DNA of 35,830 nucleotides from an uncultured bacterium (GTDB taxonomy: Bacteria > Actinomycetota > UBA4738 > HRBIN12). The stretch covers positions 1 to 35,830 of the forward strand of contig CBRGMI010000001.1 of NCBI GenBank assembly GCA_967797495.1. Direction: 5' to 3'. A model generated the notes under the pieces. The model was not told where the DNA came from. It did no database searches and worked only from the letters and a program-made list of their open reading frames with translations. Shown piece by piece: positions 1 through 16,376 of the stretch; position 1 is the first letter of the stretch, and each line of letters begins with the position of its first letter. The position numbers and the translations under genes were made by a program.

Positions 1-600
1 GTCGGGTGACCACGAGAAGCCGTCCACGGTCCCGAGATCAGAGGAGCATCGCGAGCCTCGCGATGACACGGCCACGACGCAGACCCGCTGAGCCGTAGGT
101 TCACCTGGGTGCTCAAGGGCGGGATCAACCGCCAAGGTGGAGACCCGGTAGGCGACTTCACCGCCGTCGGGCGACCACACCGCCGGGCCGAGGTCCTCGG
201 TCGAGCCCGCACGAACGAGCACGGTACGTTGACCCGAAAGTGTGTCGATGGCGAGGAGTTGATCTACCCGTGTGTAGTGCGTGGGCTCGGTGACGTAGGA
301 AGCGGCAACGATCCTGCTTCCGTCGGGCGACAACCCATAGGCGTAGATCGGCTCGCCCCCGAATGAGAGGCTCCGAGTGGTTCCCGGGCCGAGGATCTCG
401 ATCCCCGAGCTCAGTTGGATCACGAGCTGGCCCTCGGGGACCGTCACCTCCGGGGCCGGAGTGATCGCGGCTGAGGTCTCGGCGGTCTGCGGGTCGCTTG
501 TGATCGGGAGGCCCGCGGGGCTCGCAGACCCGGCTTGGCCCGGGGCTCCGCAGCCGCTAACGGTCGCGAGGATCGCAAGGCATAGCGGGGCGGCCCTCAT
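1..600 (-). CDS. secreted lipoprotein with PD40/TolB-like beta-propeller repeats (partial; 3' end lies beyond the left window edge)
   Basis: Absent from the supplied ORF track because its stop is outside the window. The reverse strand from ATG at 600 reads MRAAPLCLAILATVSGCGAPGQAGS..., a signal peptide with lipobox VSGC. Repeated SPDG blade motifs follow (LSPDGSRIV, VWSPDGGEVAY, FSWSPD). The frame stays open to position 1. Confidence 0.6.
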   Translation of the reverse strand, partial: MRAAPLCLAILATVSGCGAPGQAGSASPAGLPITSDPQTAETSAAITPAPEVTVPEGQLVIQLSSGIEILGPGTTRSLSFGGEPIYAYGLSPDGSRIVAASYVTEPTHYTRVDQLLAIDTLSGQRTVLVRAGSTEDLGPAVWSPDGGEVAYRVSTLAVDPALEHPGEPTAQRVCVVAVSSRGSRCSSDLGTVDGFSWSPD

Positions 601-679
601 CACCACACACGACTCGCTGCCAGACCACTCGGTTCCTGTGCTGCTGAGCAACGGGCGGACCCCCTGCTAGCGTCGGGCC

Positions 680-1957
680 ATGGCCGACGACGGGACCGAG
701 CGCTCTCGCCCGCGCTCGAGGATCCGGCGGATCGCGGTCGATGTCACGCCGTTGCGCGCGTCGCGCGACTTCCGTCGGCTGTGGCTGGGACTGCTCGCGT
801 CGACCCTCGGGTCGCAGTTCACGATCGTCGCGACCTACGTCCAGGTCTTCCGGCTGACCGAATCGACGGCCGCCGTCGGACTCCTCGGACTCGTCGGGTT
901 CGTCGGGCTCGTGGCGGGAACCCTCGGCGGGAGCACATTCCTGGACGCGTTCGATCGGCGGAAGATCCTGATCGCGTCCCAGCTCGGCTACCTGGCGTCC
1001 TCCGGACTGCTGTTTGCCGGCGCGCTGCACGGCGATCCGCCGCTCGCGCTGATCTACGTGGCCGTCGCCGGCGTCGCGGCCACGAGTGCGATCGACAGCC
1101 CGACCCGGAGCGCGATGACCCCCCGGCTGCTCGATCGAGGGCTACTTCCCGCGGCGGCCGCCCTCAACCAGATCGTCTGGAACGGGGCTGGTCTGATCGG
1201 TCCGGCGCTCGCGGGCGTGGTGGTGGGGACGCTCGGGTTCTCGTGGGCGTACGGGATCGATCTGATCTCGATCGGGCTGCTGCTCCTGGCTTCGATCTCG
1301 ATCCGGCCCATGCCCCCGGCCGACGGCGAGCGCACGGCGGTGGGATGGCGCGCGGTCCGCGAGGGGTTCGCGTTCCTGCGCGGACGGCAGGTCCTCCAAT
1401 CGACGTTCGTGATCGACATCATCGCGATGGTGTTCGGGATGCCACGGGCCCTGTTCCCGGTGTTGATCCTCACGCAGTTCGATCGGAGCGACACCGTCGT
1501 CGGCCTACTGTTTGCTGCGCCAGCGGTCGGCGCGTTCATCGGCGCCGCGACGACGGGGTGGGTCGGGCGCGTCCGGCACCAGGGACTCGCCGTCATCTGG
1601 GCCGTCGTGGTGTGGGGCGCGGGGATCGCCGCGTTCGGCCTGGTCGGCGCTCACCTGTGGCTCGGGGTGTTTTTCCTCGCGGTGGCGGGGGCGGCCGACG
1701 TGATCTCGGCGATCTTCCGAAACACGATCCTGCAGGTCACCGTCCCCGAGCACCTGCGCGGACGGCTGTTCGGCATCCACATCCTCGTGGTCACCGGCGG
1801 CCCTCGGCTGGGCGATCTTGAGGCGGGACTGGTCGCGGCCGCGTTCTCGCCCATGGCCTCGGTCGTCTCCGGAGGGCTGCTGTGCATCGCCGGCGCCGGC
1901 CTCGTCGCGTGGCGCGTGCCCGCGTTCCGCCGGTACCACGCCGGCGACCCAGGCTGA
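680..1957 (+). CDS. MFS transporter (EntS/MFS_3-like, about 12 TM segments)
   Basis: 425-aa ORF. After a charged N terminus it has RDFRRLWLGLLASTLGSQF and then repeated hydrophobic segments typical of the enterobactin-exporter-like MFS clade. Third-position GC is high. Confidence 0.85.
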   Translation: MADDGTERSRPRSRIRRIAVDVTPLRASRDFRRLWLGLLASTLGSQFTIVATYVQVFRLTESTAAVGLLGLVGFVGLVAGTLGGSTFLDAFDRRKILIASQLGYLASSGLLFAGALHGDPPLALIYVAVAGVAATSAIDSPTRSAMTPRLLDRGLLPAAAALNQIVWNGAGLIGPALAGVVVGTLGFSWAYGIDLISIGLLLLASISIRPMPPADGERTAVGWRAVREGFAFLRGRQVLQSTFVIDIIAMVFGMPRALFPVLILTQFDRSDTVVGLLFAAPAVGAFIGAATTGWVGRVRHQGLAVIWAVVVWGAGIAAFGLVGAHLWLGVFFLAVAGAADVISAIFRNTILQVTVPEHLRGRLFGIHILVVTGGPRLGDLEAGLVAAAFSPMASVVSGGLLCIAGAGLVAWRVPAFRRYHAGDPG

Positions 1958-1971
1958 CTAAGCTCGCGCCC

Positions 1972-3732
1972 GTGGCCCCACCGCGCGCCGACCTGGTCGA
2001 GCTCCGGGTGCTCGACGGTCCGAACCTGTACTTCCCCCGCCCCGCGGTCAAGCTCACGATCGCCGTCGGGGGCTGGCTCGAGGTCCCGGAGGAACGCCTG
2101 GCCGCGGCGCTCGAACGCGTGGGCGCGATCGGACACCCGGGCCGGGCGGGATCCGACCAGCGGCGACGGACGGTCGCCCGGCTGGCAGCTCGACTCACGT
2201 GGCGGCTCGCGACGGCCAGCGGCGTGCGGCTCGCGGTCCGCAGCCGCCCGGGTCCCGAACGCGACCAGGTCGTCGTGGCGTTCCCCTGGCGTCGGCGCGG
2301 GGCCGCCGAGGCGCTCGGTCGCGAGGTTGCGCCGCTGCTGCACGAGGTGGGCGGTCGCCGTTCGGCGGAGCGCCTCCTCGTCGAGGCCGCCGAACGGGTG
2401 GCGGCCGCCGAGCCTGGCACCGAGCCCGAGGTCCGCGACCCGGGCATCCCGGTGGTCTCGGTCACGGGGACGAACGGCAAGACCACCACGGTCCGGCTGC
2501 TCGCGCACATCGTGCGGTCGGCGCGCAGGACCGTCGCGTACTCGTCCACGGACGGGGTGTACCGCGGCGACGGAGAGCTGATCGAGGAGGGCGACTACTC
2601 GGGGTTCGGCGGCGCGGCGCGGGCGCTGGCCGAGGATCCGGACGTCGCGGTCCTCGAGACCGCGCGCGGCGGGATCCTGCTCCGCGGGATCGGCGTGATG
2701 CACAACGACGTCGCGGTCGTGACGAACGTATCCGAGGACCACCTGGGGCTGCACGGCATCCACACCCTGGACCAGCTGACCGAGGTCAAGGCGACGATCA
2801 CGCGCATCACGCGACCGGACGGTTGGGACGTGCTGAACGCGGACGACCCGCGTGTGCTCTCGATGCGTCGCGGCTCGACGGGACGGACGTGGCTGTGCTC
2901 GCACGACCCGTGGCACCCGGCGATCCGCGATGCGCTCGCCGGCGGCGGACGCGCGACGGTCCCGCTGGACGGTTGGATCACTGTGCTCGACGGTTCCGCG
3001 ACGCGACCGCTGGTCGAGCTCGTCGACGTGCCGGTCACGATCGCGGGCATCTCGGGCCACAACGTGATGAACGCGATGCAGGCGGCCTCCGCCGCGCTCG
3101 CGATCGGGCTGCCTGAACGCGCGGTCGTGAGGGGACTGAAGACCTTCGTCACCGATCCCGAACGCAACCCGGGCCGGGCGAACCTGTTCGAGCTCGACGG
3201 CCGCGTCGTCGTCGTCGATTACGCGCACAACGAGGCCGGGATGCGGGGGTTGACCGAGATGTGCGATGGCCTCCGGTGGGTCGTCGCGGAGATCTGGTTG
3301 GTGATCTGCGCGGCCGGCGATCGCACCGACCGGATCCTGCACGACTTCGCGTACCGAGCCGCACGCGGCTCCGACCACCTCGCGATCGCCGAACTGCTGC
3401 GCTACCTGCGGGGACGCGAGCGCGAGAGCATGATCGAGCGGCTGGTCGCCGGCGCGAAGGATGGCGGCGCCGTCGAGCTCGACGTCTACGCGGACGAGCT
3501 CGCCGGGCTGCGGGGGGTCCTCGCGCGTTCGGAACGCGGCGACGTGATCGGCGTGACCGCGCTCGGGATGCGGGCCGAGGTGTTCGCGTGGCTCGACGCG
3601 GCTGGCGCGAAACGCCTGACGCCCGCTCGCGTGAAGACGCTTGTCAGACGCGCAAGGACGCTCGCTTCAGGGGGCGCCGCGGCCCAAGGATCGAGGTCGC
3701 CCCGTCAGGCAGTTAGGGATCCGTCGAAATAG
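1972..3732 (+). CDS. cyanophycin-synthetase-like ligase with a CphA N-domain and a Mur-ligase-like M domain but no ATP-grasp domain
   Basis: In-frame GTG at 1972, 14 nt after the MFS stop. The N terminus LVELRVLDGPNLYFPRPAVKLTIAVG resembles VVETQVFRGPNYWSYDPAIRLLVDLG in the cphA of this window. M-domain motifs are present: VTGTNGKTTT P-loop, STDGVY, ETARGGIL, EDHLGLHGI, VLNADDP and VDYAHNEAG. The start codon is uncertain, and the track's ATG at 1882 lies inside the MFS gene. Confidence 0.8.
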   Translation: MAPPRADLVELRVLDGPNLYFPRPAVKLTIAVGGWLEVPEERLAAALERVGAIGHPGRAGSDQRRRTVARLAARLTWRLATASGVRLAVRSRPGPERDQVVVAFPWRRRGAAEALGREVAPLLHEVGGRRSAERLLVEAAERVAAAEPGTEPEVRDPGIPVVSVTGTNGKTTTVRLLAHIVRSARRTVAYSSTDGVYRGDGELIEEGDYSGFGGAARALAEDPDVAVLETARGGILLRGIGVMHNDVAVVTNVSEDHLGLHGIHTLDQLTEVKATITRITRPDGWDVLNADDPRVLSMRRGSTGRTWLCSHDPWHPAIRDALAGGGRATVPLDGWITVLDGSATRPLVELVDVPVTIAGISGHNVMNAMQAASAALAIGLPERAVVRGLKTFVTDPERNPGRANLFELDGRVVVVDYAHNEAGMRGLTEMCDGLRWVVAEIWLVICAAGDRTDRILHDFAYRAARGSDHLAIAELLRYLRGRERESMIERLVAGAKDGGAVELDVYADELAGLRGVLARSERGDVIGVTALGMRAEVFAWLDAAGAKRLTPARVKTLVRRARTLASGGAAAQGSRSPRQAVRDPSK

Positions 3733-5561
3733 CGCAGCGCGAGCGCCCACGCTTCCTTGCCGCACTGGGATCCGATCCGCCGGCCGCCGAAGTCGTCGGC
3801 CGGGATGTGGATGCCCCCGTACAGCCGGGAAACACCCGCTTGGTCGGCCGCGTCGTAGTACGTGGCCCACTCGAGGGTGACGTCCTCGCTGGGTCCGAGC
3901 TCCACCGCGAGCGAATCCGCGGGAACGGTCTGTTCGAACAGACCGCCGGGGAAGTACGGGTCCCCCGTGAAAGACGTCATGACCTCGGCGGCGGCCCGGC
4001 TGAACGTGCTGTGCCCGGACACGTAGCCGGCGAACGCCGGCGTGACGAACGTCGAGAGCTGGAACGGCACCCACTCGGTGGCGAGGATCCACCCGACCCC
4101 CGCCTTCTCGGTGGTGGGGTCCTCGGGATTCCCCCGCCACGCCCGGATCGCGATCTCCCTCACGTGGCCCGCAAGGTCCTCGTGGCGGGCGCCGGGAGCG
4201 CTCGACCGGCGGGTGATCACCTCGACCAGGCCGGGCACCAGCGGGAGACCTTCGGGGTCGTAGGAGGGCGCGTTCGGCTCGCTGGACTGGCCGTGCCCCG
4301 CGAGGTAACGGATCATCGAGATCGGCCGGACGGAGTCGTACGAACCCTTCAGACCCCAGGCGGCGATCGCCGCGTCGTGCACGGCGCCGTTGAGCGCGAA
4401 GTAGAGCTTCACGTCCCACTCGAGCCGGTCGACCTCGGGTCCGGTCCCGCCGATCCGGAACTCGAATCCGGGGGTGTCGGACACGGCGTTGGCGATCGTG
4501 TTCCAGTGACCGGGGGGCGTCTCCGAGGCCGGGCCGTCCGCCCAGAACTGGGCGAGGGCGCGCCCGAAGTCGCCCCGGAGAACCACATCGGGCGCGTACG
4601 GCTCACCCGTCGCGGGGTTCAGGTCGTGACCGTCGCCGTCGTTCGTGCCGAGCGTGTTGTCGCCGAGTTCGGACGGGCCGATGTCGATCCGGACGCCGTC
4701 GCTCGGATCGAGCTCGCTGCTGTAGCGGATCACGTCGACCGCGGCCCGCTCGTACGCCGCATCGGTCTCCCCGAGCCGAGGAGGCGGACCGGGATCGATC
4801 GGCGTCCCATCGGCCGCGGGGGGCAACGCGAACCCCTTCACGTGGCCCCACTGAGGCCCGACGAACCGCTGGACGCTGCCCGGGATCGGCAGACCGTTCT
4901 GGGCCACGATCTGCGCGAGCGCGAGCGGCTGCCAGCGGTTGGGATCCGCCATCTCCGTCCCGGGCTCGGCGACCACGAGCGGAGCGTTCACCGGGTGATA
5001 GTCGGTGTCGACGTACCGCTGCTGTTCGAGCGACCCGTCGCTCTCCCCGAACGCGATCGCCGCCGCCGCGATGCGGTTGCCGAGCGCCGCCGGCGAATCC
5101 CCCTCGGTGCTCACGAAATCGATCCGGTAGCACAGCGATCGCATCGTGGCGGCGAGCTCGTCGAACGTCTCCTGCAGGCCCGCCGCTCGCGAGTAGCGCC
5201 ACAGCAGGAGGCGATAGGCCGCGTAGCTGATCGATACCTCGCGCGCGGCTTGTACGTCGTCGGCCTGGAGCTTCTCTTGGACGAAGTACCCGTTCGCCCG
5301 AGAGTCGTAGGCGGCCCATGCGTCCCACATCGCCGCCGACGTGTGGAACAGGTTGCGAGCGTGCACGGTAGGCGCGGGAACGTCGCGTCGGATCGCATCG
5401 AGCAGCGCCTCATCCCAGACCCGAGCGACGGACCACCCTTGGAAGTCTCGGCGGTGGCAGTCGGCCATCAGGTAGTCGGCCGAGCTCGAGCCCGTGCAGC
5501 TCGGCAGGCCAACGGCTCCGGCCACCAGGACGCCGACGATCCAACGACGGGAACGCGTCAT
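3705..5561 (-). CDS. vanadium-dependent haloperoxidase / PAP2-superfamily protein, probable lipoprotein
   Basis: All three PAP2/V-HPO motifs are present: KGSYDSVRP (Kx6RP), YVSGHST (SGH) and SRLYGGIHIPADD (SRx5Hx3D). I chose the start MTRSRRWIVGVLVAGAVGLPSC (signal peptide plus Cys) at 5561, which forms an ATGA overlap with the upstream gene's stop. The 3' end overlaps the convergent ligase gene by 28 nt. Confidence 0.8.
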   Translation of the reverse strand: MTRSRRWIVGVLVAGAVGLPSCTGSSSADYLMADCHRRDFQGWSVARVWDEALLDAIRRDVPAPTVHARNLFHTSAAMWDAWAAYDSRANGYFVQEKLQADDVQAAREVSISYAAYRLLLWRYSRAAGLQETFDELAATMRSLCYRIDFVSTEGDSPAALGNRIAAAAIAFGESDGSLEQQRYVDTDYHPVNAPLVVAEPGTEMADPNRWQPLALAQIVAQNGLPIPGSVQRFVGPQWGHVKGFALPPAADGTPIDPGPPPRLGETDAAYERAAVDVIRYSSELDPSDGVRIDIGPSELGDNTLGTNDGDGHDLNPATGEPYAPDVVLRGDFGRALAQFWADGPASETPPGHWNTIANAVSDTPGFEFRIGGTGPEVDRLEWDVKLYFALNGAVHDAAIAAWGLKGSYDSVRPISMIRYLAGHGQSSEPNAPSYDPEGLPLVPGLVEVITRRSSAPGARHEDLAGHVREIAIRAWRGNPEDPTTEKAGVGWILATEWVPFQLSTFVTPAFAGYVSGHSTFSRAAAEVMTSFTGDPYFPGGLFEQTVPADSLAVELGPSEDVTLEWATYYDAADQAGVSRLYGGIHIPADDFGGRRIGSQCGKEAWALALRYFDGSLTA

Positions 5562-7138
5562 CCCGGCGGCTCCACCTGGACGATCCGATCGGCGGCGACG
5601 TCCTCGAGCACCGTCTCCTGTCCCCCCGGCCACCGGACGACCAGCTTGGTCACCCTCCGTGCATCGCCGAGGCCGAACTGGGAGCGAGGATCCTCGGACG
5701 ACAGGTAGCTCCCGCCGGCTCGGACCTCGCGGGTCAGCTCACGGCCGTCAGGCAAGGTGACGGTGACCACCGCGCCGGGGTGGAACCCCTCGAGCTGCAC
5801 CTCGAGCCAGTGCCCGGTCGCGCCCTCGTTGCGCAGGAGCGCGAGGGGACCGCCGATCGAGTTGATCGCGACGTCGAGATCGCCGTCGTTGTCGAAGTCC
5901 GCGACCGCGCTGCCTCGGGCGAGCATCGGTCCGATCGTCCCGAGGCCGACCGCCTCGCCGACGTCGTCGAAACGCCCAGGCTCGCCCTGCGCGGTGAGGT
6001 TGCCGAGCGCCTCCAACGGCTCGGCATCGGCAGCGAGGTCGGTGACCGGCACGTCCCCGTTGACCACGAACAGGTCGAGGTCGGTGTCCAGGTCCAGGTC
6101 CGCGAACGAGACGCCCCACCCGGTCGAGTCCCCCAGGTCGGCACCGAGATCGGCCCGCACGTCCGCGAACGAGGGGTTGACCAGATCCGAGAGCTGCCCG
6201 CGGTACACCGCGTGCATCTGGCCGCGAGCGTTGGTCACGAACAGATCCGGGAGGCCGTCGCCGTCGTAGTCGGCCTCGGCCACGCCCATCCCGGCGTTCG
6301 GATCGGCCACGCCGGCCCGGGCCGCGAGCTCCTCGAACCGGAACCCGAGCCCCGAGGGGTCGGCCCGGACACCCCCGGGCCACCCGACGTTCTCGTACAG
6401 GCGGTTCGGCTTCGTGTCATTGGCCACGTACAGGTCGAGATCGCCGTCGCGGTCGAGGTCCGAGAACGTCGCCCCGAGCCCGTACTCGAAGCCCACGACC
6501 TCGAGCCCCGCCTCCACGCCCACCTCCCGAAACGTCGTGCGACCGTCGCCCCCGGCGCCCTCGTTCAGGTAGAGCAGGTCGCGCACCCCGAGCTTGGTGT
6601 TCGGAAACCCCTGCGTCGCGCCCTCGATCGGCGCGTTGACGTTCGCGTATCCGGCCAGGAACAGGTCTGGCCATCCGTTCCCGTCGACGTCGCCGACGGC
6701 AGCACCCGCGTACCACCCAAAGGCCTGGACGCCAGCCGCCTCGGTCCCCTCCGTGAAGGTGCCGTCCCCCTTGTTCCACAGCAGCACTCCGACGGTCGCC
6801 GTCGTGACGTACAGGTCCGTGTTCCCGTCAAGGTCGAAGTCGGCCGCGACGCACCCGCTGCCCTGGACGGCGAGATCGGTTCCGGATCCCGAGCTGACGT
6901 CGACGAACTCGCCACCGACGTTGTGGAAGAGCGCGCTCCGCGGGAGGCCGCCCTCCTGTTGCCACCGATCGGCCTCGGACAGGGCGTACGAGTTCACCAC
7001 GAACAGGTCGAGCCAACCGTCCGCGTCATAGTCGAGCCAGCAGACCCCCCCTCCCATCATCGCCGCGGGATCGGGCGCGACGTCCCAGTGGAAGGCGCCC
7101 TGCCGGAAGTCGAGCCCGACCTCGGACGCGACGTCCAC
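5558..7138 (-). CDS. CRTAC1-family protein (FG-GAP/VCBS repeats with a C-terminal ASPIC/UnbV domain)
   Basis: Repeated DxDxDGxxD-type blades (DYDADGWLDLFV, DFDLDGNTDLYV, DVDGNGWPDLFL, DLDRDGDLDLYV, DYDGDGLPDLFV, DLDLDTDLDLFV, DFDNDGDLDV). The C-terminal part GHWLEVQLEG...GGSYLSSEDPRSQFGLG...VRWPGG is typical of ASPIC/UnbV. 7138 is the first canonical start (GTG). The true N terminus probably lies upstream (see finding at 7139-7345). Confidence 0.85.
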   Translation of the reverse strand: MDVASEVGLDFRQGAFHWDVAPDPAAMMGGGVCWLDYDADGWLDLFVVNSYALSEADRWQQEGGLPRSALFHNVGGEFVDVSSGSGTDLAVQGSGCVAADFDLDGNTDLYVTTATVGVLLWNKGDGTFTEGTEAAGVQAFGWYAGAAVGDVDGNGWPDLFLAGYANVNAPIEGATQGFPNTKLGVRDLLYLNEGAGGDGRTTFREVGVEAGLEVVGFEYGLGATFSDLDRDGDLDLYVANDTKPNRLYENVGWPGGVRADPSGLGFRFEELAARAGVADPNAGMGVAEADYDGDGLPDLFVTNARGQMHAVYRGQLSDLVNPSFADVRADLGADLGDSTGWGVSFADLDLDTDLDLFVVNGDVPVTDLAADAEPLEALGNLTAQGEPGRFDDVGEAVGLGTIGPMLARGSAVADFDNDGDLDVAINSIGGPLALLRNEGATGHWLEVQLEGFHPGAVVTVTLPDGRELTREVRAGGSYLSSEDPRSQFGLGDARRVTKLVVRWPGGQETVLEDVAADRIVQVEPPG

Positions 7139-7433
7139 GAACCGGAGTCCGGTCGCCTCCGAGGTGTCGGTCTTCGGCGTCGTCGGCTCGGCGGCGGGCT
7201 CCGAGGTGCAAGCGGCGAGGAGCAGGACGAAGACGCAGATCGCTATGGAGCGCGGCGTGGCCAGCGAGGTCGTTGGTGGACACCTCCCGAGCGTCGACGA
7301 GCGATGGGTGGCCGCAGGCAGGGGGACGCTATCGGCGTGCGCTCAGGCACGTCAAGGCAACACCTTTGACCCGTTTGGCGCTCTGACCCAGATGCGAGGG
7401 ATGCTTGCGGTTGGACGAGCGAAAGGGGAAGCG

Positions 7434-8138
7434 ATGCGACTGCAGGGCAAGGTGGCGCTCGTGACGGGAGCGAGCGGAGGGATCGGGGCCGCGGTGGCCC
7501 GGTCCCTCGCGGATGAGGGGGCTCGGCTGGGGCTGGCCTCCCGAAGCGGATCCGATCTCGGGCTCGAGAGCGCCGTCGCGCGCCCGTGCGACGTGCGCGA
7601 TCCGGCGGCGATCCGGGCGTTGGCCAACGAGGTCGTGGAGCGCTTCGGCACGCTCGACATCGTCGTGGTCAATGCGGGCGTCGGATCCTACGGACCGTTC
7701 CTGGATCTGCCGGACGACGAGCTCGACGAGATCGTCGACGTCAACGTGAAGGGCGCCCTGTACACGCTCCGAGCGACGCTCCCGCACCTCCTGCGCAGCG
7801 AGGCGGCCGACGTGATCACGATCGCGTCGGAGGCCGGCAGACGCGGCCTGCCGTTCGAGGCCGCCTACTGCGCGTCGAAGTTCGCGCAGGTGGGCCTCAC
7901 GAGAGCGCTCGACCACGAGCTCCGTCCCCGAGGCGTCCGATGCACGAACGTGTGCCCCGGCGGCGTCGCGACGGAGTTCGCGATGGGCCGGGGACGCACG
8001 CCCGACATGCCCGAGCTTGAGCACATGATGTCGGCGGACGACGTGGCGGAGGCCGTGCTCTTCGTGCTCACCCGGCCGAGGACCCATCGGATCCTCGAGG
8101 TCGCGTTCCGGCCGATGGCGGAGGCGTCGTGGGGATGA
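7434..8138 (+). CDS. short-chain dehydrogenase/reductase (SDR)
   Basis: ATG at 7434 is preceded by AAAGGGGAAG. Motifs: TGASGGIG cofactor motif, NAG, and YCASK (YxxxK) catalytic motif. Confidence 0.85.
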   Translation: MRLQGKVALVTGASGGIGAAVARSLADEGARLGLASRSGSDLGLESAVARPCDVRDPAAIRALANEVVERFGTLDIVVVNAGVGSYGPFLDLPDDELDEIVDVNVKGALYTLRATLPHLLRSEAADVITIASEAGRRGLPFEAAYCASKFAQVGLTRALDHELRPRGVRCTNVCPGGVATEFAMGRGRTPDMPELEHMMSADDVAEAVLFVLTRPRTHRILEVAFRPMAEASWG

Positions 8139-9127
8139 GCGAGAAGGTGCTCCGCTGGGGGATCGTGTCGACCGCGAACATCGGCGTCCGCAAGGTGATC
8201 CCCGCGACCCAGAAGGCAAAGCGATGCGAGGTCGTCGCGATCGCGTCGCGGGACGGCGAGCGAGCCGCGCGGGTCGCCGGCGACCTCGGGATCCCCCGAG
8301 CCCACGGGGCCTACGAGGCGTTGCTCGCCGATCCCGAGGTGGACGCCGTCTACATCCCGCTCCCGAACAACGACCACGCAGCGTGGACGATCGCCGCGGC
8401 CCGGGCCGGCAAGCACGTCCTCTGTGAGAAGCCGCTCGCGATGACCGCGGCCGAGGCCGGGCGGATGGTGGAGGCGTGCGCCTCCGAGGGCATCGTGCTG
8501 ATGGAGGCCTTCATGTACCGGCTGCATCCGTCGTGGGAGGCCGTCCGCGACCTCGTCGCCTCGGGCCGGATCGGGAGGCTGCGCGCCGTCCAGAGCTGGT
8601 TCTCCTACTACAACGACGACCCTCGCAACATCCGCAACCTGCCCGAACTCGGCGGCGGCGCGCTCTACGACATCGGCTGCTACTGCATCAACCTGTCCCG
8701 GATGCTGTTCGGAGGCGAGCCGACAAGGGTCGAGGCGTCGTTGACACGCGACGAGACAGGTACCGACGTGCTGACCTCGGCGCTCCTGGCGTTCGGCGAG
8801 GACGTCGCCACCTTCGCGTGCTCCACTCGCTCCGAACCCGACCAGCGCGTGCACATCTACGGCACCGAGGGCCGGATCTCGATCGGCATCCCGTTCAATA
8901 TCCCGCCGGATCGCCCGGCAGAGATCACCGTGACGTCGGGCGGCGACCCGCCGGCCAACCCCCACTCCGAGACGCTCACGTTCCCGGCGGCGGACATGTA
9001 CACGATCCAGGCGGAGCGGTTCGCGAACGCGGCGCTCGACGGTGAACCGCCGCCGATCCCCCCCGACGACGCGATCGGGAACTTGCGCGTGATCGAGGCC
9101 GTCTTCCGAGCGGGACAGCGCGCCTAG
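8135..9127 (+). CDS. Gfo/Idh/MocA family oxidoreductase
   Basis: LRWGIVSTANIG Rossmann N terminus and the EKP motif (VLCEKPLA). ATG at 8135 overlaps the SDR stop (ATGA). A GTG at 8129 is an alternative start. Confidence 0.85.
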   Translation: MSEKVLRWGIVSTANIGVRKVIPATQKAKRCEVVAIASRDGERAARVAGDLGIPRAHGAYEALLADPEVDAVYIPLPNNDHAAWTIAAARAGKHVLCEKPLAMTAAEAGRMVEACASEGIVLMEAFMYRLHPSWEAVRDLVASGRIGRLRAVQSWFSYYNDDPRNIRNLPELGGGALYDIGCYCINLSRMLFGGEPTRVEASLTRDETGTDVLTSALLAFGEDVATFACSTRSEPDQRVHIYGTEGRISIGIPFNIPPDRPAEITVTSGGDPPANPHSETLTFPAADMYTIQAERFANAALDGEPPPIPPDDAIGNLRVIEAVFRAGQRA

Positions 9128-9143
9128 TCGCCGGAGCCGAGCC

Positions 9144-10622
9144 TCACGCGAGCGAGTGGAACGTGGGCGCGAGCGCCGGGTAGAGCGCCCGGTAGCGCGC
9201 ATAGGCATCGTCGTAGGCCGACACGTCGCCCGACGGATCGACAACCTCGCCGAGCCGCACGAGCGCGCGGCAGGCATCCTCGACGTTTGCGAACCATCCG
9301 AGACCGACGGCGGCCAGCATCGCCGCGCCCTGCGCCGCTCCCTCGGATGTCGTGGTGGTCGCGACGGGTGCCTGGAGCACGTCCGAGAGGATCCGGCGCC
9401 AGACAGGAGCCCTGCTCCCGCCTCCGGTCGCGCGGATCGGCCCCGACACCGGGGCTCCGAGCGCCTTCGTCAGCTCGAGCGAATCGCGCAGCCCGAACGC
9501 GACGCCTTCGAGGACGGCTCGCGTGAGGTGCGCGCGGCCATGGTGGAGTGTGAGGCCGACGAACGCACCGCGCGCCGCTGGATCGGGATGGGGCGTCCGC
9601 TCCCCGCTGAGGTATGGGAGGAACAGCAGGCCGTCGCTGCCGGCCGGCACTGCGCCCGCCTCCTCGACGAGCTCGGGAAAGCCGACGCCCGGCGCCAGCG
9701 CGTCGCGGAACCACCGGAGGCTCCCGGCCGCCGAGAGCATGACACCCATCACGTGCCACCGATCCGGCACGCAATGGCAGAACGCGTGCAGGCGCGCCTC
9801 GGGCTCGACGACCGGTCGGTCCGTCGAGGTGAACACGACCCCCGAGGTCCCGAGCGAGAGCGAGACCACGCCCGGTTCGACGGCCCCCACGCCGACCGCG
9901 GCCGCGGATTGATCGCCGCCGCCCGCGACCACCGGGATGCCCGCGCGAAGGCCGGTCGCCTCGGCGGCCTCCCCCGTGACCGAGCCGGTCACGTCAGTGC
10001 CCTCGAACGTCCGCGGGAGCCAGGAGGGGTCGATCCCGAGGGCGGCCACGACCTCGTCCGACCAGTCACGCCGAGCGAGGTCGAACAGGAGCGTCCCGGC
10101 GCCGTCCGCCCGGTCCACCGCGTGATCCCCGGTGAGCCGGAGCCGAATGAGGTCCTTCGGCAACAGGACGTGTGCGATCTCGGACCAGACCTGAGGCTCA
10201 TGACGGCGCACCCAGAGCAGCTTGGGCGCCGTGAACCCCGGGAGGGCGTCGTTCCCCGTGATCGAGATCAGGCGCTCGCGACCGATCACGTCGCGGATCT
10301 CGTCGCATTCGGCCCCGGTCCGTTGGTCGTTCCACAGGATCGCGGGACGCAGGATCCGGTCACGGGCGTCAAGCGTCACCAGCCCGTGCATCTGACCCGT
10401 GAGCCCGACCGCCTCCACCTCGTCGCCGCCGGCCTCGCCGATCGCCGTCCGGATCGCGCCCACGGCGGAGGACCACCAGACGTTCGGGTCCTGTTCGCTC
10501 CAGCGCGGGTGCGGCGCCTCGAACGGGTACTCGACGGCCGCCGACGATCGAACGGCGCCCGAGCGACCCAGGATCACCGCTTTCGTGGCCGTGGTCGAGA
10601 CGTCCAACCCCAGGACGCTCAC
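9144..10622 (-). CDS. xylB: xylulokinase (FGGY family)
   Basis: LGLDVSTTATKAV, GLTGQMHGLV, ILWNDQR and GGGDQSAAAVG are FGGY/XylB signatures. The gene lies directly downstream of xylA. Confidence 0.9.
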   Translation of the reverse strand: MSVLGLDVSTTATKAVILGRSGAVRSSAAVEYPFEAPHPRWSEQDPNVWWSSAVGAIRTAIGEAGGDEVEAVGLTGQMHGLVTLDARDRILRPAILWNDQRTGAECDEIRDVIGRERLISITGNDALPGFTAPKLLWVRRHEPQVWSEIAHVLLPKDLIRLRLTGDHAVDRADGAGTLLFDLARRDWSDEVVAALGIDPSWLPRTFEGTDVTGSVTGEAAEATGLRAGIPVVAGGGDQSAAAVGVGAVEPGVVSLSLGTSGVVFTSTDRPVVEPEARLHAFCHCVPDRWHVMGVMLSAAGSLRWFRDALAPGVGFPELVEEAGAVPAGSDGLLFLPYLSGERTPHPDPAARGAFVGLTLHHGRAHLTRAVLEGVAFGLRDSLELTKALGAPVSGPIRATGGGSRAPVWRRILSDVLQAPVATTTTSEGAAQGAAMLAAVGLGWFANVEDACRALVRLGEVVDPSGDVSAYDDAYARYRALYPALAPTFHSLA

Positions 10623-10665
10623 GCCCGGCGACTTCCAGACGGCCGAACTCGGGATGCCTCGGGCG

Positions 10666-11829
10666 TCACCGAGCCCCGAGCAGGAGGTCGATCGTGAGTT
10701 GATCCAGCCGCTCGTACGGCTGGCCGCGCGCGGCCAACGCGCGCCGATCGAGCTCGAGCCGGCCGAGGGCCTCCGCTCGTTCCTGCGAGTACGGGCCGAG
10801 GTAGGGGGTCATCGACCCGTCGTCCTCGCCGATCTGCGCGACGAGCGCCTGGATCTCGGGGTCGGCGTTCCAACGCTCGGCCTTCTCCTTCAGGATCAGG
10901 TAGGTCCGCATGCATCCGCGCGCGAACGCCTTCACGTCCTCATAGTCCGACGTCCGATAGGCATGGGCGTCGAAGTGGCGGCTCCCGGCGTACCCCACGT
11001 CCTCGAGGAACTTCACGAGGAAGAACGCGGCCTTGGGGTTCGCGGAGCCGAACCGCAGGTCCTGGTCGTATCGCCCCGGTATCTGGTCGTTCAGGTCGAT
11101 GTGGAACAGTTTGCCCATCGACCATGCTTGCGCGACGTGGTGCGTGGAGTTGAGCCCCGCCATGTGCTCGTGCGCGACCTCCGGGTTCACCCCCACCATG
11201 TCCGAGTGCTCGAGCGTGGTGATGAACGCGAGCATCGCACCCGTGGTCGCCAGGTAGATGTCGCCCCGCGGCTCGTTCGGCTTGGACTCGAGCGCGAACC
11301 GCAAGTCGTACCCCTGCTCCTTGACGTAGCCGCACAGGAAGTTCAGCGCGTCCGCGTACCGGTCCAGGGCCAACAGGGGATCCTTCGACGAGTCGGTCTC
11401 CACACCCTCTCGACCCCCCCAGAACACGTACGTCGTTGCCCCAAGCTCCACCCCGAGGTCGATCGCGCGCATCGTCTTCTGGATCGCGAGCGCGCGGACC
11501 CGTGGATCGTTCGCCGTGAAGGCGCCGTCGCGGAAGACGGGATCGCGGAAAAGGTTCGTGGTCGCCATCGGCACAACCAGGCCGGTCGCGTCGAGCGCCT
11601 TGCGGAAATCGGAGACGATCTGCTCACGCTCGTGCGGGCTCGCGTCGATCGGGACGAGGTCGTTGTCGTGCAGGTTCACGCCCCACGCGCCGACCTCAGC
11701 CAGCAGCTCCACGAGCTGCACGGGCCACAGAGCCTCGCGCACAGGGTCCCCGAAGGGATCGATCCCGATGTTCCCCACGGTCCACAGGCCGAAGGAGAAC
11801 CGATGCTCCGGCCGGGGTTCGTACGTCAT
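10666..11829 (-). CDS. xylA: xylose isomerase (class I, actinobacterial type)
   Basis: 387 aa with [15 protein letters not shown]-like [27 protein letters not shown] and HIDLNDQ motifs. GGAGGTGG lies upstream of the ATG. Confidence 0.95.
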
Positions 11830-11853
11830 CGTGCCACCACCTCCAGACCGCTC

Positions 11854-13149
11854 TTACACGGCCCCTCGAGCGGCCCGCCGGCGCTTCGCGAGCGCGTCGA
11901 GCAGCACCGCGCCGAGCAGGACCAGGCCGGTGATCACGAACTTGGTGCCTGAGGAGAGCCCGAGCAGCCCCAGGCCGTTGTCGATCGACGCGATGACGAG
12001 CGCGCCGAGCAGCGCCGCGACGACCCGCCCGATCCCGCCGAACAGGCTCGCGCCGCCGATCACGGCCGCCGCGATCACGTTGAGGAGCAGTTCGCCCCCG
12101 CCCGAGCCCGTCGCCACCGAACGGAGCCTGGAGGCCAGGATGATCCCGCCCACGCCGGCCATGAACCCGCCGATCATGAACACCGCGATCCGGACACGGT
12201 CGACGCTGATCCCGGCCCTGCGAGCGGCCTCGGCGCTGCCGCCGACCGCGTAGACATGGCGTCCGAAACGCGTGCGCGCCGCCACGAACGACCAGAACAC
12301 GAGGAACACCAGGAGGATCACGGTGACCTTCGGGACGCCTCGGTCCTGGTTCGCGTACCCGATCGCCGCGAACGTCACCACGGCCAGGCCGACGGTCTGG
12401 GCGGCGATCACCACCCCGGGCTTCGCGTACAGACCTCCTCGGCGACGAGAGCGAGCGGTCTGGATCTGGGAGATCGCGTACCCCACCACCACGAGGACAC
12501 CGACCGCCCACCCCCAGAACGTGGACAGGAAGTCGTTCGCGATCCCGATGACCGTGTCGTTCTGGATGCGGATCGTCCCGGACGTCGAGTACTGGGTCGT
12601 CATGATGAGGACGACGCCCGACCAGATCAGCAGGCCGGCCAGCGTCACCACGAAGGAGGGCACACCGAACTTCGTGATCACGATCGCGTGCAGGAACCCG
12701 ATGATCGTCGTGACGGCGAGCGCGACGCCGATCGCCGCCCATGCCGGCCAGTTCGAGGCCTCGGGCCGAAGCAGGAGGGTCATAAGGACACCCCCGACGG
12801 CGCTCACGAAGGCGACCGACAGGTCGATCTCCCCGATCAGGAGCACGAACACGATCCCGATCGCGATCGTCGCCACCGCCGCCATCTGCAGGAGCAGGTT
12901 CGTGAAGTTGCGAGGCGTGAAGAAGGTGTCGTCGAGCATCCCGAACACCACGGCGATCACGACCAGGCCGATCACGATGGGGATCGACCCGAGCTCGCCG
13001 CCCCGGATGGCTTCCCATCTCCGGCTCAGGTAGGCGGCGACGGACTCCTGGGCAGTCGACGGTCCTGTGCCGAGGGCGGGCAGCTCGGTGGCCGACACGC
13101 CCGTCCCGACCTCGACCTCCGGCGTGGTGTCGCGCGGTTCGGTCGTCAT
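11854..13149 (-). CDS. xylH: xylose/sugar ABC transporter permease
   Basis: ATG at 13149 (MTTEPRD...) overlaps the xylG stop (ATGA). The protein has multiple TM segments. The upstream part of the 682-aa track ORF is an off-frame read-through of xylG. Confidence 0.85.
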   Translation of the reverse strand: MTTEPRDTTPEVEVGTGVSATELPALGTGPSTAQESVAAYLSRRWEAIRGGELGSIPIVIGLVVIAVVFGMLDDTFFTPRNFTNLLLQMAAVATIAIGIVFVLLIGEIDLSVAFVSAVGGVLMTLLLRPEASNWPAWAAIGVALAVTTIIGFLHAIVITKFGVPSFVVTLAGLLIWSGVVLIMTTQYSTSGTIRIQNDTVIGIANDFLSTFWGWAVGVLVVVGYAISQIQTARSRRRGGLYAKPGVVIAAQTVGLAVVTFAAIGYANQDRGVPKVTVILLVFLVFWSFVAARTRFGRHVYAVGGSAEAARRAGISVDRVRIAVFMIGGFMAGVGGIILASRLRSVATGSGGGELLLNVIAAAVIGGASLFGGIGRVVAALLGALVIASIDNGLGLLGLSSGTKFVITGLVLLGAVLLDALAKRRRAARGAV

Positions 13150-13925
13150 GCTTCCACCGGGGCGTCGGCCATCCCCGGTACGTGCGTCAGCTTCCCTGCC
13201 GTGATGGCGTGCACGACCTCCTCCTGGTTCGTCTGCGCCAGCTCGAAGAGCGCGACCCGCTGACCGAGTCTCAGCACCGTGATCCGGTTCGCGCACTCGA
13301 AGATGTCGTGCAGGTTGTGGGAGACGATGACCACGCCGAGGCCGCGCTCCGCCAGCCGGCGAACGAGATCCAGCACCTGGCGCGTCTGCGCGACCCCCAG
13401 GGCGGCGGTGGGCTCGTCGAGGATCACGAGCTTCGAGTTCCACATCACCGACTTGGCGACGGCCACCGCCTGTCGCTGACCCCCGGACAGGCCGGCCACG
13501 ATCTGGCGGACCGAGCGGAGCGAGGTGACGGAGAGGCTGTCGAGGGTCTCGCGCGAGGACTGCTCCATGCTCGGCTCGTCGAGCACGACCCCGGCACGGG
13601 TCCGTTCCCGGCCGAGGAACATGTTGGCCACCACGTCGAGGTTGTCCGCGAGCGCGAGATCCTGGTAGACGACCTCGATGCCGAGCTTGGCCGCATCGCG
13701 GGGACCGTGGATGGCGATGGGGCGCCCCTCGAACCGCACCTCGCCCTCGTCGAACGGGTGGATCCCGACCACGCTCTTGATGAGCGTCGACTTTCCGGCG
13801 CCGTTGTCGCCGACGAGCGCCATCACCTCCCCGCGCCTGACCTCGAAGTCGACGCGGTAGAGCGCGCGGACCGCCCCGAACGACTTCGAGACGCCGACGC
13901 ACTCGAGCAGCGGTGTGTCAGCCAC
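13146..13925 (-). CDS. xylG: sugar ABC transporter ATP-binding protein (single nucleotide-binding domain)
   Basis: Walker A GDNGAGKST, signature LSGGQRQ, Walker B LVILDEPT. GTG start is preceded by GAGGAGG. Confidence 0.85.
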   Translation of the reverse strand: MADTPLLECVGVSKSFGAVRALYRVDFEVRRGEVMALVGDNGAGKSTLIKSVVGIHPFDEGEVRFEGRPIAIHGPRDAAKLGIEVVYQDLALADNLDVVANMFLGRERTRAGVVLDEPSMEQSSRETLDSLSVTSLRSVRQIVAGLSGGQRQAVAVAKSVMWNSKLVILDEPTAALGVAQTRQVLDLVRRLAERGLGVVIVSHNLHDIFECANRITVLRLGQRVALFELAQTNQEEVVHAITAGKLTHVPGMADAPVEA

Positions 13926-13963
13926 AGGCCCTCCTCGTCATTCTCCGCAACGACCGGACCTTA

Positions 13964-13989
13964 CGGGAGCGCCGTTTCCGGCGCTCCCG
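13964..13989 (-). promoter_or_regulatory. intra-operon stem-loop between xylF and xylG
   Basis: Perfect inverted repeat CGGGAGCGCCG-tttc-CGGCGCTCCCG: an 11-bp GC-rich stem with a 4-nt loop, in the 87-nt xylF-xylG spacer. Confidence 0.5.
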
Positions 13990-14012
13990 CCTGGCTCGTC
14001 TTCCGTCTCCCG

Positions 14013-15221
14013 CTAGGCCGCGTTCTCCTGGCAGAAGTCGGTCTTCGCGACGTCCCCGGTGCAGATCTCCTCGATCGTCCGGAACCCGTCGGCGATCACC
14101 GTGTCCGCGATGTTGTCGATCGTCACGCCGATCGGGACCAGGGCCACGTAGGGAACGACCCCGTCCCCCGTGGGCGAGTCGGCCGGCGTGCCGTCCGCGG
14201 CGTTGATGCCGATGATCGAGACACCCGAACCCCCAGACGCGAGCGCCGACTGGTAGCTGGTCGCGGCGTCCTCGTAGCTGCCGCCGTCGCGAAGCGCGAG
14301 CGCGATCGCGGCCGTGACCCCTGCCTCGTCCTGAATCGGCTTGTAGACGCTCACCGTCTGGTTGCCGAGGGCGACGTTCTGGATCCCCTCGGCCGTCGCG
14401 TCCTGGCCGCTCACCGGGATCGGACCGAACCCCGCAGCTTCGACGGCGTTGATGGTCGATTGGGCGAGACCGTCGTTGGCGGCGAACACCGCGTCGACCT
14501 TGTTGTTCGCCGAGACCAGGATCTGCTCCATGATCGTCTGCGCCTCGGCATTGTCCCACCCGGGCACGAACTGATCGTCGACCAGCGCCCAGTCGCCGGC
14601 GTCGACGCGCGCCTCGACGGTCTCGGCGTAGCCGTCGCGGAACAGGAACGAGTTGTTGTCCTCCTCGCCGCCGTTCAGCATCACGACCTGCGGCTCGGGG
14701 AGCCCGAGGGCGTCGATCGCCGGCTCCATCGCGGTGGCCATCGCCTTGCCCACGGCGACGTTGTCGAAGCTCACGTACGCCACGCCGCCGGAGCCGCCCG
14801 TGTTGAACCGGTCGTACTCGATGACCTGGACGCCGGCCTCCTTGGCCTGGTCGATGATCGTGGCACCCGAGCCCGTGTCCAGGCTCGTCAGTACGATCAC
14901 GCTGGCGCCGTCGGCGATCGCCTGCTCCGCTTGCGACTGCTGCGTCGCGGAATCGCCCTCGGCGTTGACGATGTTGAAGTCCTCACCGTTGACCAGACCC
15001 GCGTCCTCGAACGATTGCGTGAAGAGCGGGAGGTCGTCGCCCTCCCATCGGTCGGACGAGGCGGTGTCGGGCAGCAACACCCAGATCGGGCCGCCGGAGG
15101 TCGCCGAGCCGGTCGTCCCTCCGGTGGTACCCGTCTCGCCTCCGTTGTCGTCGCTACACGCGGCGGCGACGAGCCCGAGCACGGCGACCACCACCAAGAT
15201 CGAACGAATGGTGCGATGCAT
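14013..15221 (-). CDS. xylF: xylose/sugar ABC transporter substrate-binding lipoprotein
   Basis: ATG at 15221 is preceded by GGGAGAAGGGGGAG. MHRTIRSILVVVAVLGLVAAAC is a signal peptide with a lipobox, followed by a Gly/Thr linker and a periplasmic-binding-protein type I fold sequence. Only the C-terminal 402 aa of the 706-aa track ORF are used. Confidence 0.8.
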   Translation of the reverse strand: MHRTIRSILVVVAVLGLVAAACSDDNGGETGTTGGTTGSATSGGPIWVLLPDTASSDRWEGDDLPLFTQSFEDAGLVNGEDFNIVNAEGDSATQQSQAEQAIADGASVIVLTSLDTGSGATIIDQAKEAGVQVIEYDRFNTGGSGGVAYVSFDNVAVGKAMATAMEPAIDALGLPEPQVVMLNGGEEDNNSFLFRDGYAETVEARVDAGDWALVDDQFVPGWDNAEAQTIMEQILVSANNKVDAVFAANDGLAQSTINAVEAAGFGPIPVSGQDATAEGIQNVALGNQTVSVYKPIQDEAGVTAAIALALRDGGSYEDAATSYQSALASGGSGVSIIGINAADGTPADSPTGDGVVPYVALVPIGVTIDNIADTVIADGFRTIEEICTGDVAKTDFCQENAA

Positions 15222-15383
15222 AGCTCCCCCTTCTCCCGAGCGAGGCAGAAACCGTCGGCGGACCCGTCCCCGCGACATCTGAAATCGGTGCCCGAGCCTA
15301 TGCCGGGGTGGTCGGAGGCGCAAGTCACACCACTCCGCGCTCAGGGAGTGCACCGGTGTCGACCGCCTGCGAAGCTCCTCCGC

Positions 15384-16338: not shown

Positions 16339-16376
16339 GCTGACGCGGACCATGGCTCGTCGGACGCGGTTGCCGA

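Follow-up and report, generated by a model that had tools for sequence, protein, structure and literature searches.

The DNA analyzed here is a stretch of 35,830 nucleotides (nt) from an uncultured actinobacterium (contig CBRGMI010000001.1; the whole stretch is referred to as the window), with a G+C content of ~70%, and its gene at 1972-3732 on the forward strand encodes a 586-amino acid (aa) paralogue of cyanophycin synthetase that is labeled here, together with its family, NM. The synthesis of cyanophycin is currently described with two types of enzyme: CphA1, which has three domains, and CphA2, which polymerizes dipeptides and whose M domain is reduced. In CphA1, addition of Asp to the backbone is the task of the G domain, and the M domain then attaches Arg to the side chain of the new Asp. 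NM has the N and M domains of this family without the G (ATP-grasp) domain, as established by Pfam, NCBIfam, profile-profile comparison and structure prediction with Foldseek. NM is conserved and tied to the cphA1-cphB genes, and it looks like a helper in making the nitrogen-storage polymer.

Domain architecture of NM

The NM gene extends from a GTG start codon at 1972 to a TGA stop codon ending at 3732. The longest possible open reading frame (ORF) begins at 1882 and overlaps the upstream gene; the start was assigned to 1972 because the N-termini of 17 homologues coincide with this position (M/VAPPRADLVELRV...; MAPPRADLVELRV...). The ORF and the homologue starts agree with the 586-aa product proposed for 1972-3732 in a first-pass annotation of this DNA, and all the motifs quoted there were found in the NM sequence.

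The CphA-type M domain spans NM residues ~159-545 and comprises a Mur-ligase core at residues 164-374 (2461-3093, forward strand; Pfam Mur_ligase_M, 71.3 bits with a cut-off of 24) and a C-terminal lid at residues 401-529 (3172-3558, forward strand; Pfam Mur_ligase_C, 30.4 bits with a cut-off of 28.4), so that both families defining the Mur ligase superfamily (PF08245 and PF02875) are found above their gathering scores. In a BLASTP comparison NM shared 37% aa identity over 412 aa (E 2e-58) with the full-length CphA1 encoded in the same window. On the NCBIfam profile TIGR02068, NM scored 344.3 bits over profile positions 476-846 only, which is below the 850-bit cut-off for CphA1 equivalogs, as compared with 1172.7 bits for the window CphA1. 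The next-best NCBIfam model was MurE NF001126 (92.3 bits with a cut-off of 373), the MurT and FolC models gave 32.8 bits (cut-off 800) and 38.1 bits (cut-off 162.65), respectively, and NM was far below the cut-off of all the curated MurC, MurD, MurE, MurF, MurT, FolC and CfbE equivalog models tested. The best sequence match in the PDB was SuCphA1 (7lg5) at 219.7 bits, the best non-CphA chain reaching 55 bits. Likewise, an AlphaFold2 (AF2) model of full-length NM, with a predicted local distance difference test score (pLDDT) of 70, gave CphA1 structures as top Foldseek matches (E ~1e-23, with MurE at 1e-16), and the CphA1 alignments to this model covered ~885 columns on ~870-residue targets, corresponding to the N domain, a gap for the G domain and the M domain.

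No ATP-grasp family of Pfam was detected in NM at E ≤ 0.01 or in its residues 1-160 at E ≤ 10, whereas the window CphA1 matches Cyanophycin_syn, RimK, ATP-grasp, CPSase_L_D2, Mur_ligase_M and Mur_ligase_C. The P-loop of NM (GTNGKTT) is located at residues 166-172, which leaves no room for a G domain, and in the AF2 models the N domain is directly joined to the M domain; relative to CphA1, the absent G domain amounts to ~325 aa. The architecture proposed in the first-pass annotation, N and M domains without ATP-grasp, was thus recovered by Pfam, NCBIfam, hhalign and AF2/Foldseek. The early placement of the P-loop also held, but the figure of ~190 residues given for it did not, and the P-loop of the window CphA is at ~520 rather than ~510.

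The N-terminal 150 residues (1972-2421, forward strand), which include a GPN loop at residues 16-18 and are strongly conserved inside the NM family, are a divergent CphA N domain on the evidence of profile-profile comparison and predicted structure. At the sequence level the resemblance to the window CphA1 is weak (12/40 identities, E 0.001 in BLASTP). The N-domain family PF18921 was unmatched in the N-terminal 160 aa of NM at E ≤ 10, and likewise in 26 diverse homologues, and a hidden Markov model profile of the NM N domain searched against all PDB sequences returned chance matches only and no CphA chain. A phmmer search of the NM N domain against 1.84 billion representatives gave 232 matches, of which the best 150 included no ~900-aa CphA1; nearly all of these 150 were fragments or N+M proteins of 550-590 aa, the exceptions being a 745-aa member with a C-terminal extension and a 1091-aa repetitive chance match. 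The homology is therefore invisible to sequence-to-profile methods, and profile-profile and fold comparison were needed. When 60 non-redundant NM N domains were compared in hhalign with 22 CphA1 N domains, four of them PDB sequences, the two groups aligned with a Prob of 80% and E 1.3e-5 over 118 collinear columns, which pair the same elements that had been aligned by eye in the first-pass annotation. An AF2 model of residues 1-158 (pLDDT 92.1, pTM 0.88) further gave 15 top PDB matches in Foldseek that were all CphA1 (four organisms) or CphA2 (two organisms), with prob 0.99-1.00 and TMq 0.48-0.63, the following match having a prob of 0.28. The CphA-type N domain suspected from the alignment by eye is thereby corroborated by profile and fold.

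Two features of the N domain can be compared with those described in CphA1. The first is Cx19HxxEH, the motif of a zinc endo-cyanophycinase site in the CphA1 N domain, which is present in 83% of CphA1 sequences and is not obligatory (PMC9262961). The NM N domain is devoid of this motif, the aligned helix reading ARLAARLTWRLA, with neither HxxEH nor the Cys loop. The window CphA1 has it at residues ~86-110 (C-SLGRRGGFGERLREGTWLG-HVAEH), as in primer-independent CphA1 enzymes. The second is the GPNYWS loop, which in CphA1 packs against the M domain (PMC9262961); in the NM counterpart G16 and N18 are invariant and the loop is nearly unchanged across diverse homologues.

Databases name proteins of the NM type 'Mur ligase family protein' (also the NCBI name) or 'Mur ligase middle domain protein', and some carry the wrong name 'cyanophycin synthetase'. 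The first of these names, together with the fact that Pfam sees only Mur_ligase_M and Mur_ligase_C, could indicate that NM merely resembles CphA and is a common Mur-family ligase (MurE-, MurT-, FolC- or CapB-like) acting in cell-wall or cofactor metabolism. This is very improbable and is contradicted by the data: the CphA profile scores 344 bits against at most 92 for any Mur, FolC or MurT model, all far below their cut-offs, the N-terminal fold is that of the CphA N domain and not of the Mur UDP-binding domain, and both the phylogenetic tree, in which NM groups with CphA away from E. coli MurC-F, and the linkage to cphA1-cphB described below argue against it. The profile scores, the PDB match and the tree all sustain the earlier view that the M domain resembles CphA rather than MurE, MurT or FolC.

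Active site and selection

The M-site residues mapped in TeCphA1 and SuCphA1 are Lys499/Thr500 of the P-loop, the Mg ligands Thr522/Glu558 and Arg731/His748 of the lid (PMC9427784), and D585/H586 is an inactivating pair in CphA1 (PMC9262961). The equivalents of these mapped residues in NM are K170, T171, S192/T193, E229, D256, H257, R402 and H419. The P-loop G166-T172 is encoded at nt 2467-2487 and the catalytic D256-H257 pair at nt 2737-2742, E229 is a Mg ligand, and R402 and H419 of the lid correspond to the ATP-contacting R731 and H748 of TeCphA1. K170, T171, E229, D256, H257, R402 and H419 were invariant in 93/93 NM homologues, T193 was kept in 92/93 and position 192 was Ser, Cys or Thr, so that the ATP and Mg ligands on which the first-pass reading depended are in place and invariant except at 192/193. 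R232, N420 and R480 are common to NM and CphA1 and invariant in the NM family, but E. coli MurC-F do not have them. No more than six alignment positions set NM and CphA1 apart consistently, which indicates a very CphA-like active site. In comparisons with six orthologues the ratio of non-synonymous to synonymous substitution rates (dN/dS) ranged from 0.13 to 0.36 in the N domain and from 0.18 to 0.29 in the M domain, both domains being under purifying selection. NM is apparently an ATP-dependent enzyme and, from its conserved residues, is predicted to be active.

Genomic context

A pattern scan of GTDB species genomes returned 382 confirmed stretches with NM relatives, and gene context was analyzed in the 80 closest species-level loci, the best of these 382 matches. 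The cphA1 gene was found downstream of NM in 53/80 loci and on the opposite strand, i.e. convergent with NM, in all of these (53/53); where ~8 kb of downstream sequence was available (54 loci), it was within 8 kb in 43. The median gap between NM and cphA1 was ~1 kb, and in eight loci the stop codons were less than 70 bp apart or overlapping, as exemplified by the stop-to-stop arrangements of loci L052 (NM 7998-9698, cphA 9705-12473, cphB 12470-13327) and L075. The cphB gene precedes cphA1 throughout these loci, and the arrangement of NM with cphA1-cphB was also present in Kribbella, Terrabacter, an Actinomycetales metagenome-assembled genome (MAG) and a Chloroflexia MAG, whose NM proteins share 40-48% identity with that of the window.

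In the window, the full-length cyanophycin synthetase CphA1 (N+G+M, 947 aa; TIGR02068, 1172.7 bits, and Pfam) is encoded at 17804-20647 on the reverse strand. The cyanophycinase gene cphB lies upstream of it at 20644-21510 on the same strand (TIGR02069, 240.8 bits with a cut-off of 126.6; Peptidase_S51), its stop codon overlapping the cphA1 start by 4 nt. The loci in which cphA1 is distant belong mostly to the nearest relatives of the window and, as in the window, have a block separating NM from cphA1. In the window this block (3705-17447, ~14 kb) contains a VCPO/PAP2-like gene, an FG-GAP/ASPIC gene, a short-chain dehydrogenase/reductase (SDR) gene, two GFO/IDH/MocA oxidoreductase genes, an FGGY sugar kinase gene, a xylose-isomerase-like gene and an ABC sugar transporter. 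Since NM and cphA1 are tail-to-tail in many relatives, an ancestral NM/cphA1-cphB cluster seems to have been interrupted here by insertion of the block. The linkage to cphA1-cphB is the defining context of NM and the main addition over the first-pass annotation, in which the window CphA had served as a comparator only.

The gene directly upstream of NM in the window encodes a major facilitator superfamily (MFS) transporter of the MFS_3/EntS-like type (680-1957, forward strand; Pfam MFS_3, 106.6 bits with a cut-off of 27), which on the NCBIfam EntS model NF007792 scored 196.4 bits, under the cut-off of 324 for EntS exporters. It ends at 1957 and NM starts at 1972, in agreement with the 14-nt gap reported in the first-pass annotation. 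An MFS gene was directly upstream of NM in 53/69 loci, with distances from the end of the tblastn match of 12-676 nt, mostly below 110 nt, and of 12-20 nt in the closest relatives, and in the clade of the window the MFS and NM genes probably form one operon. A scan of 1-4200 for promoters and terminators returned no promoter and one terminator-like site within the MFS gene, at chance level. The pairing depended on identity class, being found in 42/43 loci at ≥65% identity and in 11/26 loci at 55-65%, and in Kribbella and Terrabacter the MFS gene is absent upstream of NM, where a FabI-like reductase gene is found instead. The pairing noted in the first-pass annotation is thus genuine and tight but does not extend beyond the clade, and because it is clade-limited the hint of export is weaker than had been implied. 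The constant partner of NM is cphA1-cphB, and the MFS gene is a clade-specific operon partner.

The immediate upstream position of the MFS gene at these short distances, and its EntS-like MFS_3 efflux family, would fit a small-molecule ligase: NM would make a soluble isopeptide (e.g. beta-Asp-Arg made of free Asp and free Arg, or a different amino acid attached to a carboxylate) that the MFS protein exports or imports, the product possibly being a primer or building block for CphA1. This reading is rather unlikely, as the MFS gene is missing in distant members (Kribbella, Terrabacter and about half of the 55-65% class) while the cphA1 link persists, and as NM keeps a polymer-anchoring N domain for which there is no obvious need in a dipeptide synthetase. 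Furthermore, the window CphA1 has the Cx19HxxEH primer-generating site and should not need external primers.

NM has other neighbors as well. At their 3' ends, the window NM gene and the VCPO/PAP2-like gene (3705-5633, reverse strand), which converge, overlap by 28 nt (3705-3732). SDR genes recur near NM. One with FabI-like (adh_short_C2) as best family lies just upstream of NM in Kribbella (L081: 7210-7986, forward strand), Terrabacter (L086: 7099-7860, forward strand) and locus L085 (7214-7993, forward strand); an SDR gene with adh_short as best family is also found a few kb downstream of NM in the clade of the window (in the window at 7164-8138, forward strand). The other upstream neighbors vary and include XdhC, M20 peptidase, aldo-keto reductase and amine oxidase genes. 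The M20-family peptidase gene is on the strand opposite to NM in two loci, adjoining it in a Chloroflexia MAG (L144: 6682-7902, reverse strand) and one gene away in an Actinomycetota MAG (L067: 6026-7225, reverse strand); seen in these two loci only, it might act as a dipeptidase on products of cyanophycin breakdown. At ~10-15 kb from cphB-cphA1, the window also encodes a Ppx/GppA phosphatase (31019-32569, reverse strand), a NUDIX-histidine phosphatase fusion (32573-34123, reverse strand) and the C-terminal part of a polyphosphate kinase (34953-35819, reverse strand), so that two storage-polymer gene sets, for polyphosphate and cyanophycin, are present in one region.

Distribution and phylogeny

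Thousands of metagenomic proteins of 552-594 aa are of the NM type. The best 80 of the 382 genome matches are from Actinomycetota MAGs and share 59-87% identity with the window NM, the nearest relatives being uncultured soil Actinomycetota MAGs, a few of them labeled Gaiellaceae or Solirubrobacterales. Members at a greater distance (40-48% identity) were found in Kribbella and Terrabacter, both cultured, and in Nocardioides and Chloroflexota MAGs, and the 120 closest relatives of the Kribbella NM protein belong to many named Kribbella species. Some NM proteins are longer (745-758 aa) and carry a C-terminal tetratricopeptide repeat domain (TPR_5), as in Terrabacter sp. BE26 (L086: 7899-10175, forward strand), locus L087 and protein P0150, which suggests protein-protein interaction.

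In an M-domain tree built by neighbor joining, with E. coli MurC-F as the root, NM clustered with CphA apart from the E. coli enzymes and formed a deep monophyletic clade (92% bootstrap) that was not nested in actinobacterial CphA1. Bootstrap values were 51% for NM with CphA1 and 57% for CphA1 monophyly.

The possibility that NM is a decaying, G-less remnant of a duplicated cphA1 with no function can be assessed from these data. NM is a paralogue of a neighboring gene, and a 'shorter cphA copy' of Tetrasphaera is expressed at a lower level (PMC10687191), as might be expected of such a remnant. The low dN/dS of both domains (0.13-0.36) and the invariant catalytic residues speak against it, as do the recurrence of one architecture and length, both in the 80 species-level loci analyzed (of 382 confirmed matches) and among thousands of metagenomic proteins, and the deep, monophyletic position of the clade outside actinobacterial CphA1. 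A dead remnant is therefore contradicted by the data and effectively refuted by conservation.

A second, separate family with N+M organization, termed here type X, was identified in Proteobacteria, Acidobacteria and Myxococcota and is abundant, under generic names, in metagenomes. In its proteins of ~545-590 aa, a CphA-type M domain comes after an N-terminal region bearing 'DSRRLTGPN'; no ATP-grasp sequence motif was seen, and precomputed Pfam results show Mur_ligase_M and Mur_ligase_C only. The type X gene is directly after cphA1 in Plesiocystis (P. pacifica), Luteimonas (L. lutimaris), Rubrivivax, Steroidobacteraceae, Lysobacterales, Acidobacteriota and Thermoanaerobaculia (loci L157: 7485-9200, L136: 9333-11000, L141: 9331-11106, L117: 9347-11008, L093: 9357-11225 and L145: 9419-11188, all on the forward strand, and L147: ~9600-11250, on the reverse strand). 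The grouping of NM with type X received a bootstrap value of 18%. Both families have His/Asn at positions 363/364 like E. coli MurC-F, where most CphA1s have Met/Phe-Met, and N399 and G214 are also common to NM and type X as compared with CphA1 (in the window, residues 363-364 are encoded at nt 3058-3063, 399 at 3166-3168 and 214 at 2611-2613, forward strand). These common residues may reflect divergence before the radiation of CphA1 or a common functional specialization. More speculatively, since the Mur-like H363/N364 are kept in NM and type X and replaced in most CphA1s, the two families could be relics of an ancestor of N+M type that later acquired the ATP-grasp domain by insertion.

Proposed function

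In CphA1, the N domain anchors the polymer and forms with the M core a groove that holds the chain end (PMC9427784, PMC9262961). The M site binds only chains ending in undecorated Asp, and bound cyanophycin has the N domain on one side of it and the M core on the other (PMC9427784). NM keeps this complete M-site module and nothing else. On balance, NM is thus predicted, with confidence a little above even, to be a stand-alone side-chain ligase of the Arg type, its substrates in trans being the chains that CphA1 produces. In this mechanism, NM would bind a cyanophycin chain ending in undecorated Asp, (beta-Asp-Arg)n-Asp, phosphorylate the side-chain carboxylate with ATP and join Arg (or a similar amino acid, e.g. 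Lys) to the activated side chain. Extension of the Asp backbone would not be possible, so that NM alone is predicted to be unable to make multi-L-arginyl-poly-L-aspartate from Asp, Arg and ATP. It would therefore work in trans on chains from the neighboring full-length CphA1, where it might accelerate the side-chain step, bring it to completion or alter which amino acid is added.

Several observations weigh against a side-chain ligase acting in trans. The neighboring CphA1 enzymes keep intact M domains, so that NM has no evident deficiency to make up for and a second M activity no evident benefit. The MFS partner conserved in the clade of the window would suit an insoluble intracellular polymer less well than a small product or substrate that is transported. 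In addition, cphA1 is more than 8 kb away in 11/54 loci, and likewise in the window, and the amino acid specificity of NM is not readable from its sequence. A variant in which NM compensates for a degenerate M domain of the adjacent CphA1 was ruled out, those M domains being intact.

The tight and conserved linkage to cphA1, the part that the N domain and M core of CphA1 are implicated in playing in polymer binding, and the C-terminal TPR protein-interaction domain of Terrabacter-type members could also point to a structural or regulatory partner, NM acting in a hetero-oligomer with CphA1 or on cyanophycin granules and tuning polymerization, chain length or granule formation mainly by binding, with catalysis secondary. 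This is distinctly unlikely given that the ATP, Mg and catalytic residues (192/193 apart) do not vary among 93 sequences, which would be unexpected for a binding-only protein, and that NM and cphA1 are convergent and hence not co-transcribed.

A broader version of the side-chain ligase proposal includes type X. NM and type X would together represent a third functional class of cyanophycin enzyme beside CphA1 and CphA2, that of stand-alone side-chain ligases acting in trans, perhaps with an amino acid preference of their own, giving a polymer of mixed composition, or re-decorating Asp residues unserved by the M domain of CphA1. This extension is put forward tentatively, as a possible but somewhat doubtful one.

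If NM is a side-chain ligase, the side-chain step of cyanophycin synthesis can be done by a separate enzyme, which could explain variable polymer composition or kinetics in non-cyanobacteria, including soil Actinomycetota and the phosphate-accumulating Tetrasphaera of wastewater. Homology-based genome surveys of 'cphA' will arrive at too many synthetases. For the production of tailored cyanophycin, an Arg/Lys side-chain ligase that stands alone would be a useful tool, and NM would provide a simple system in which to study chain-end recognition by the N domain and M core.

Comparison with known systems

No curated family for NM was found, and no functional study in the literature searched, in line with the statement in the first-pass annotation that no characterized enzyme of N+M architecture was known. 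The closest known system is CphA1 (TIGR02068; 7LG5, 7WAC, 7LGM, 7LGN), with which NM shares the N-domain fold, the M core and lid, the P-loop, the Mg ligands, the Asp-His pair, the CphA-specific residues, 37% identity in the M domain and a gene neighborhood. It differs from CphA1 in having no G domain (~325 aa), which makes backbone extension impossible, in having no Cx19HxxEH site, in an N domain too divergent for PF18921 and in forming a separate deep clade. The Mur ligases (MurC/D/E/F, MurT, FolC and the pseudomurein ligases) have in common with NM the M-domain fold with its ATP-dependent acyl-phosphate mechanism and the Pfam families Mur_ligase_M and Mur_ligase_C, but NM is without their UDP-nucleotide-binding N-terminal domain, and E. 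coli MurC-F are without the CphA-specific residues.

Type X resembles NM in having a GPN-motif N-terminal region followed by an M domain (known in type X from sequence alone), in its linkage to cphA1 and in G214, N364 and N399. It is, however, a separate clade with a longer N-terminal region, the P-loop lying ~170-240 residues from the likely start, and its gene is co-directional with and downstream of cphA1, whereas NM is convergent.

Terrabacter, which carries NM, is an actinobacterium of the same family as Tetrasphaera, and the shorter cphA copy of Tetrasphaera is for this reason probably an NM. The 'shorter cphA copy' of Tetrasphaera MAGs, which is expressed less than the longer one, is treated in that study as a cphA copy, its domains undiscussed, with Fuser and Steinbuchel (2007) cited for neighboring cphA copies (PMC10687191).

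Two further accessory paralogues can be set beside NM. CphA2 (7TA5, 8FXH, 8FXI) is, like NM, an accessory CphA paralogue in which one catalytic module is reduced and the N domain is without the zinc-peptidase motif, and CphA2 N domains match the NM N-domain model at TMq 0.51-0.54. The truncations are opposite, CphA2 having N and active G domains with a reduced, inactive M domain and polymerizing beta-Asp-Arg, and NM having N and full M domains, so that NM lacks the features defining CphA2; furthermore, CphA2 is cyanobacterial, whereas NM was found in Actinomycetota and Chloroflexota. In Burkholderiales and Nitrosomonas, a second cphA copy upstream of full-length cphA1 aligns to CphA residues ~29-700 only (N+G+partial M), as in Nitrosomonas europaea (L119: 4315-6267, followed by cphA1 at 6597-9164) and likewise in loci L091, L100, L101, L105, L112 and L126. 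Identity of NM with this beta-proteobacterial copy was ruled out on account of that domain content and of its position upstream of cphA1. At least three architectures are thus represented among accessory CphA paralogues.

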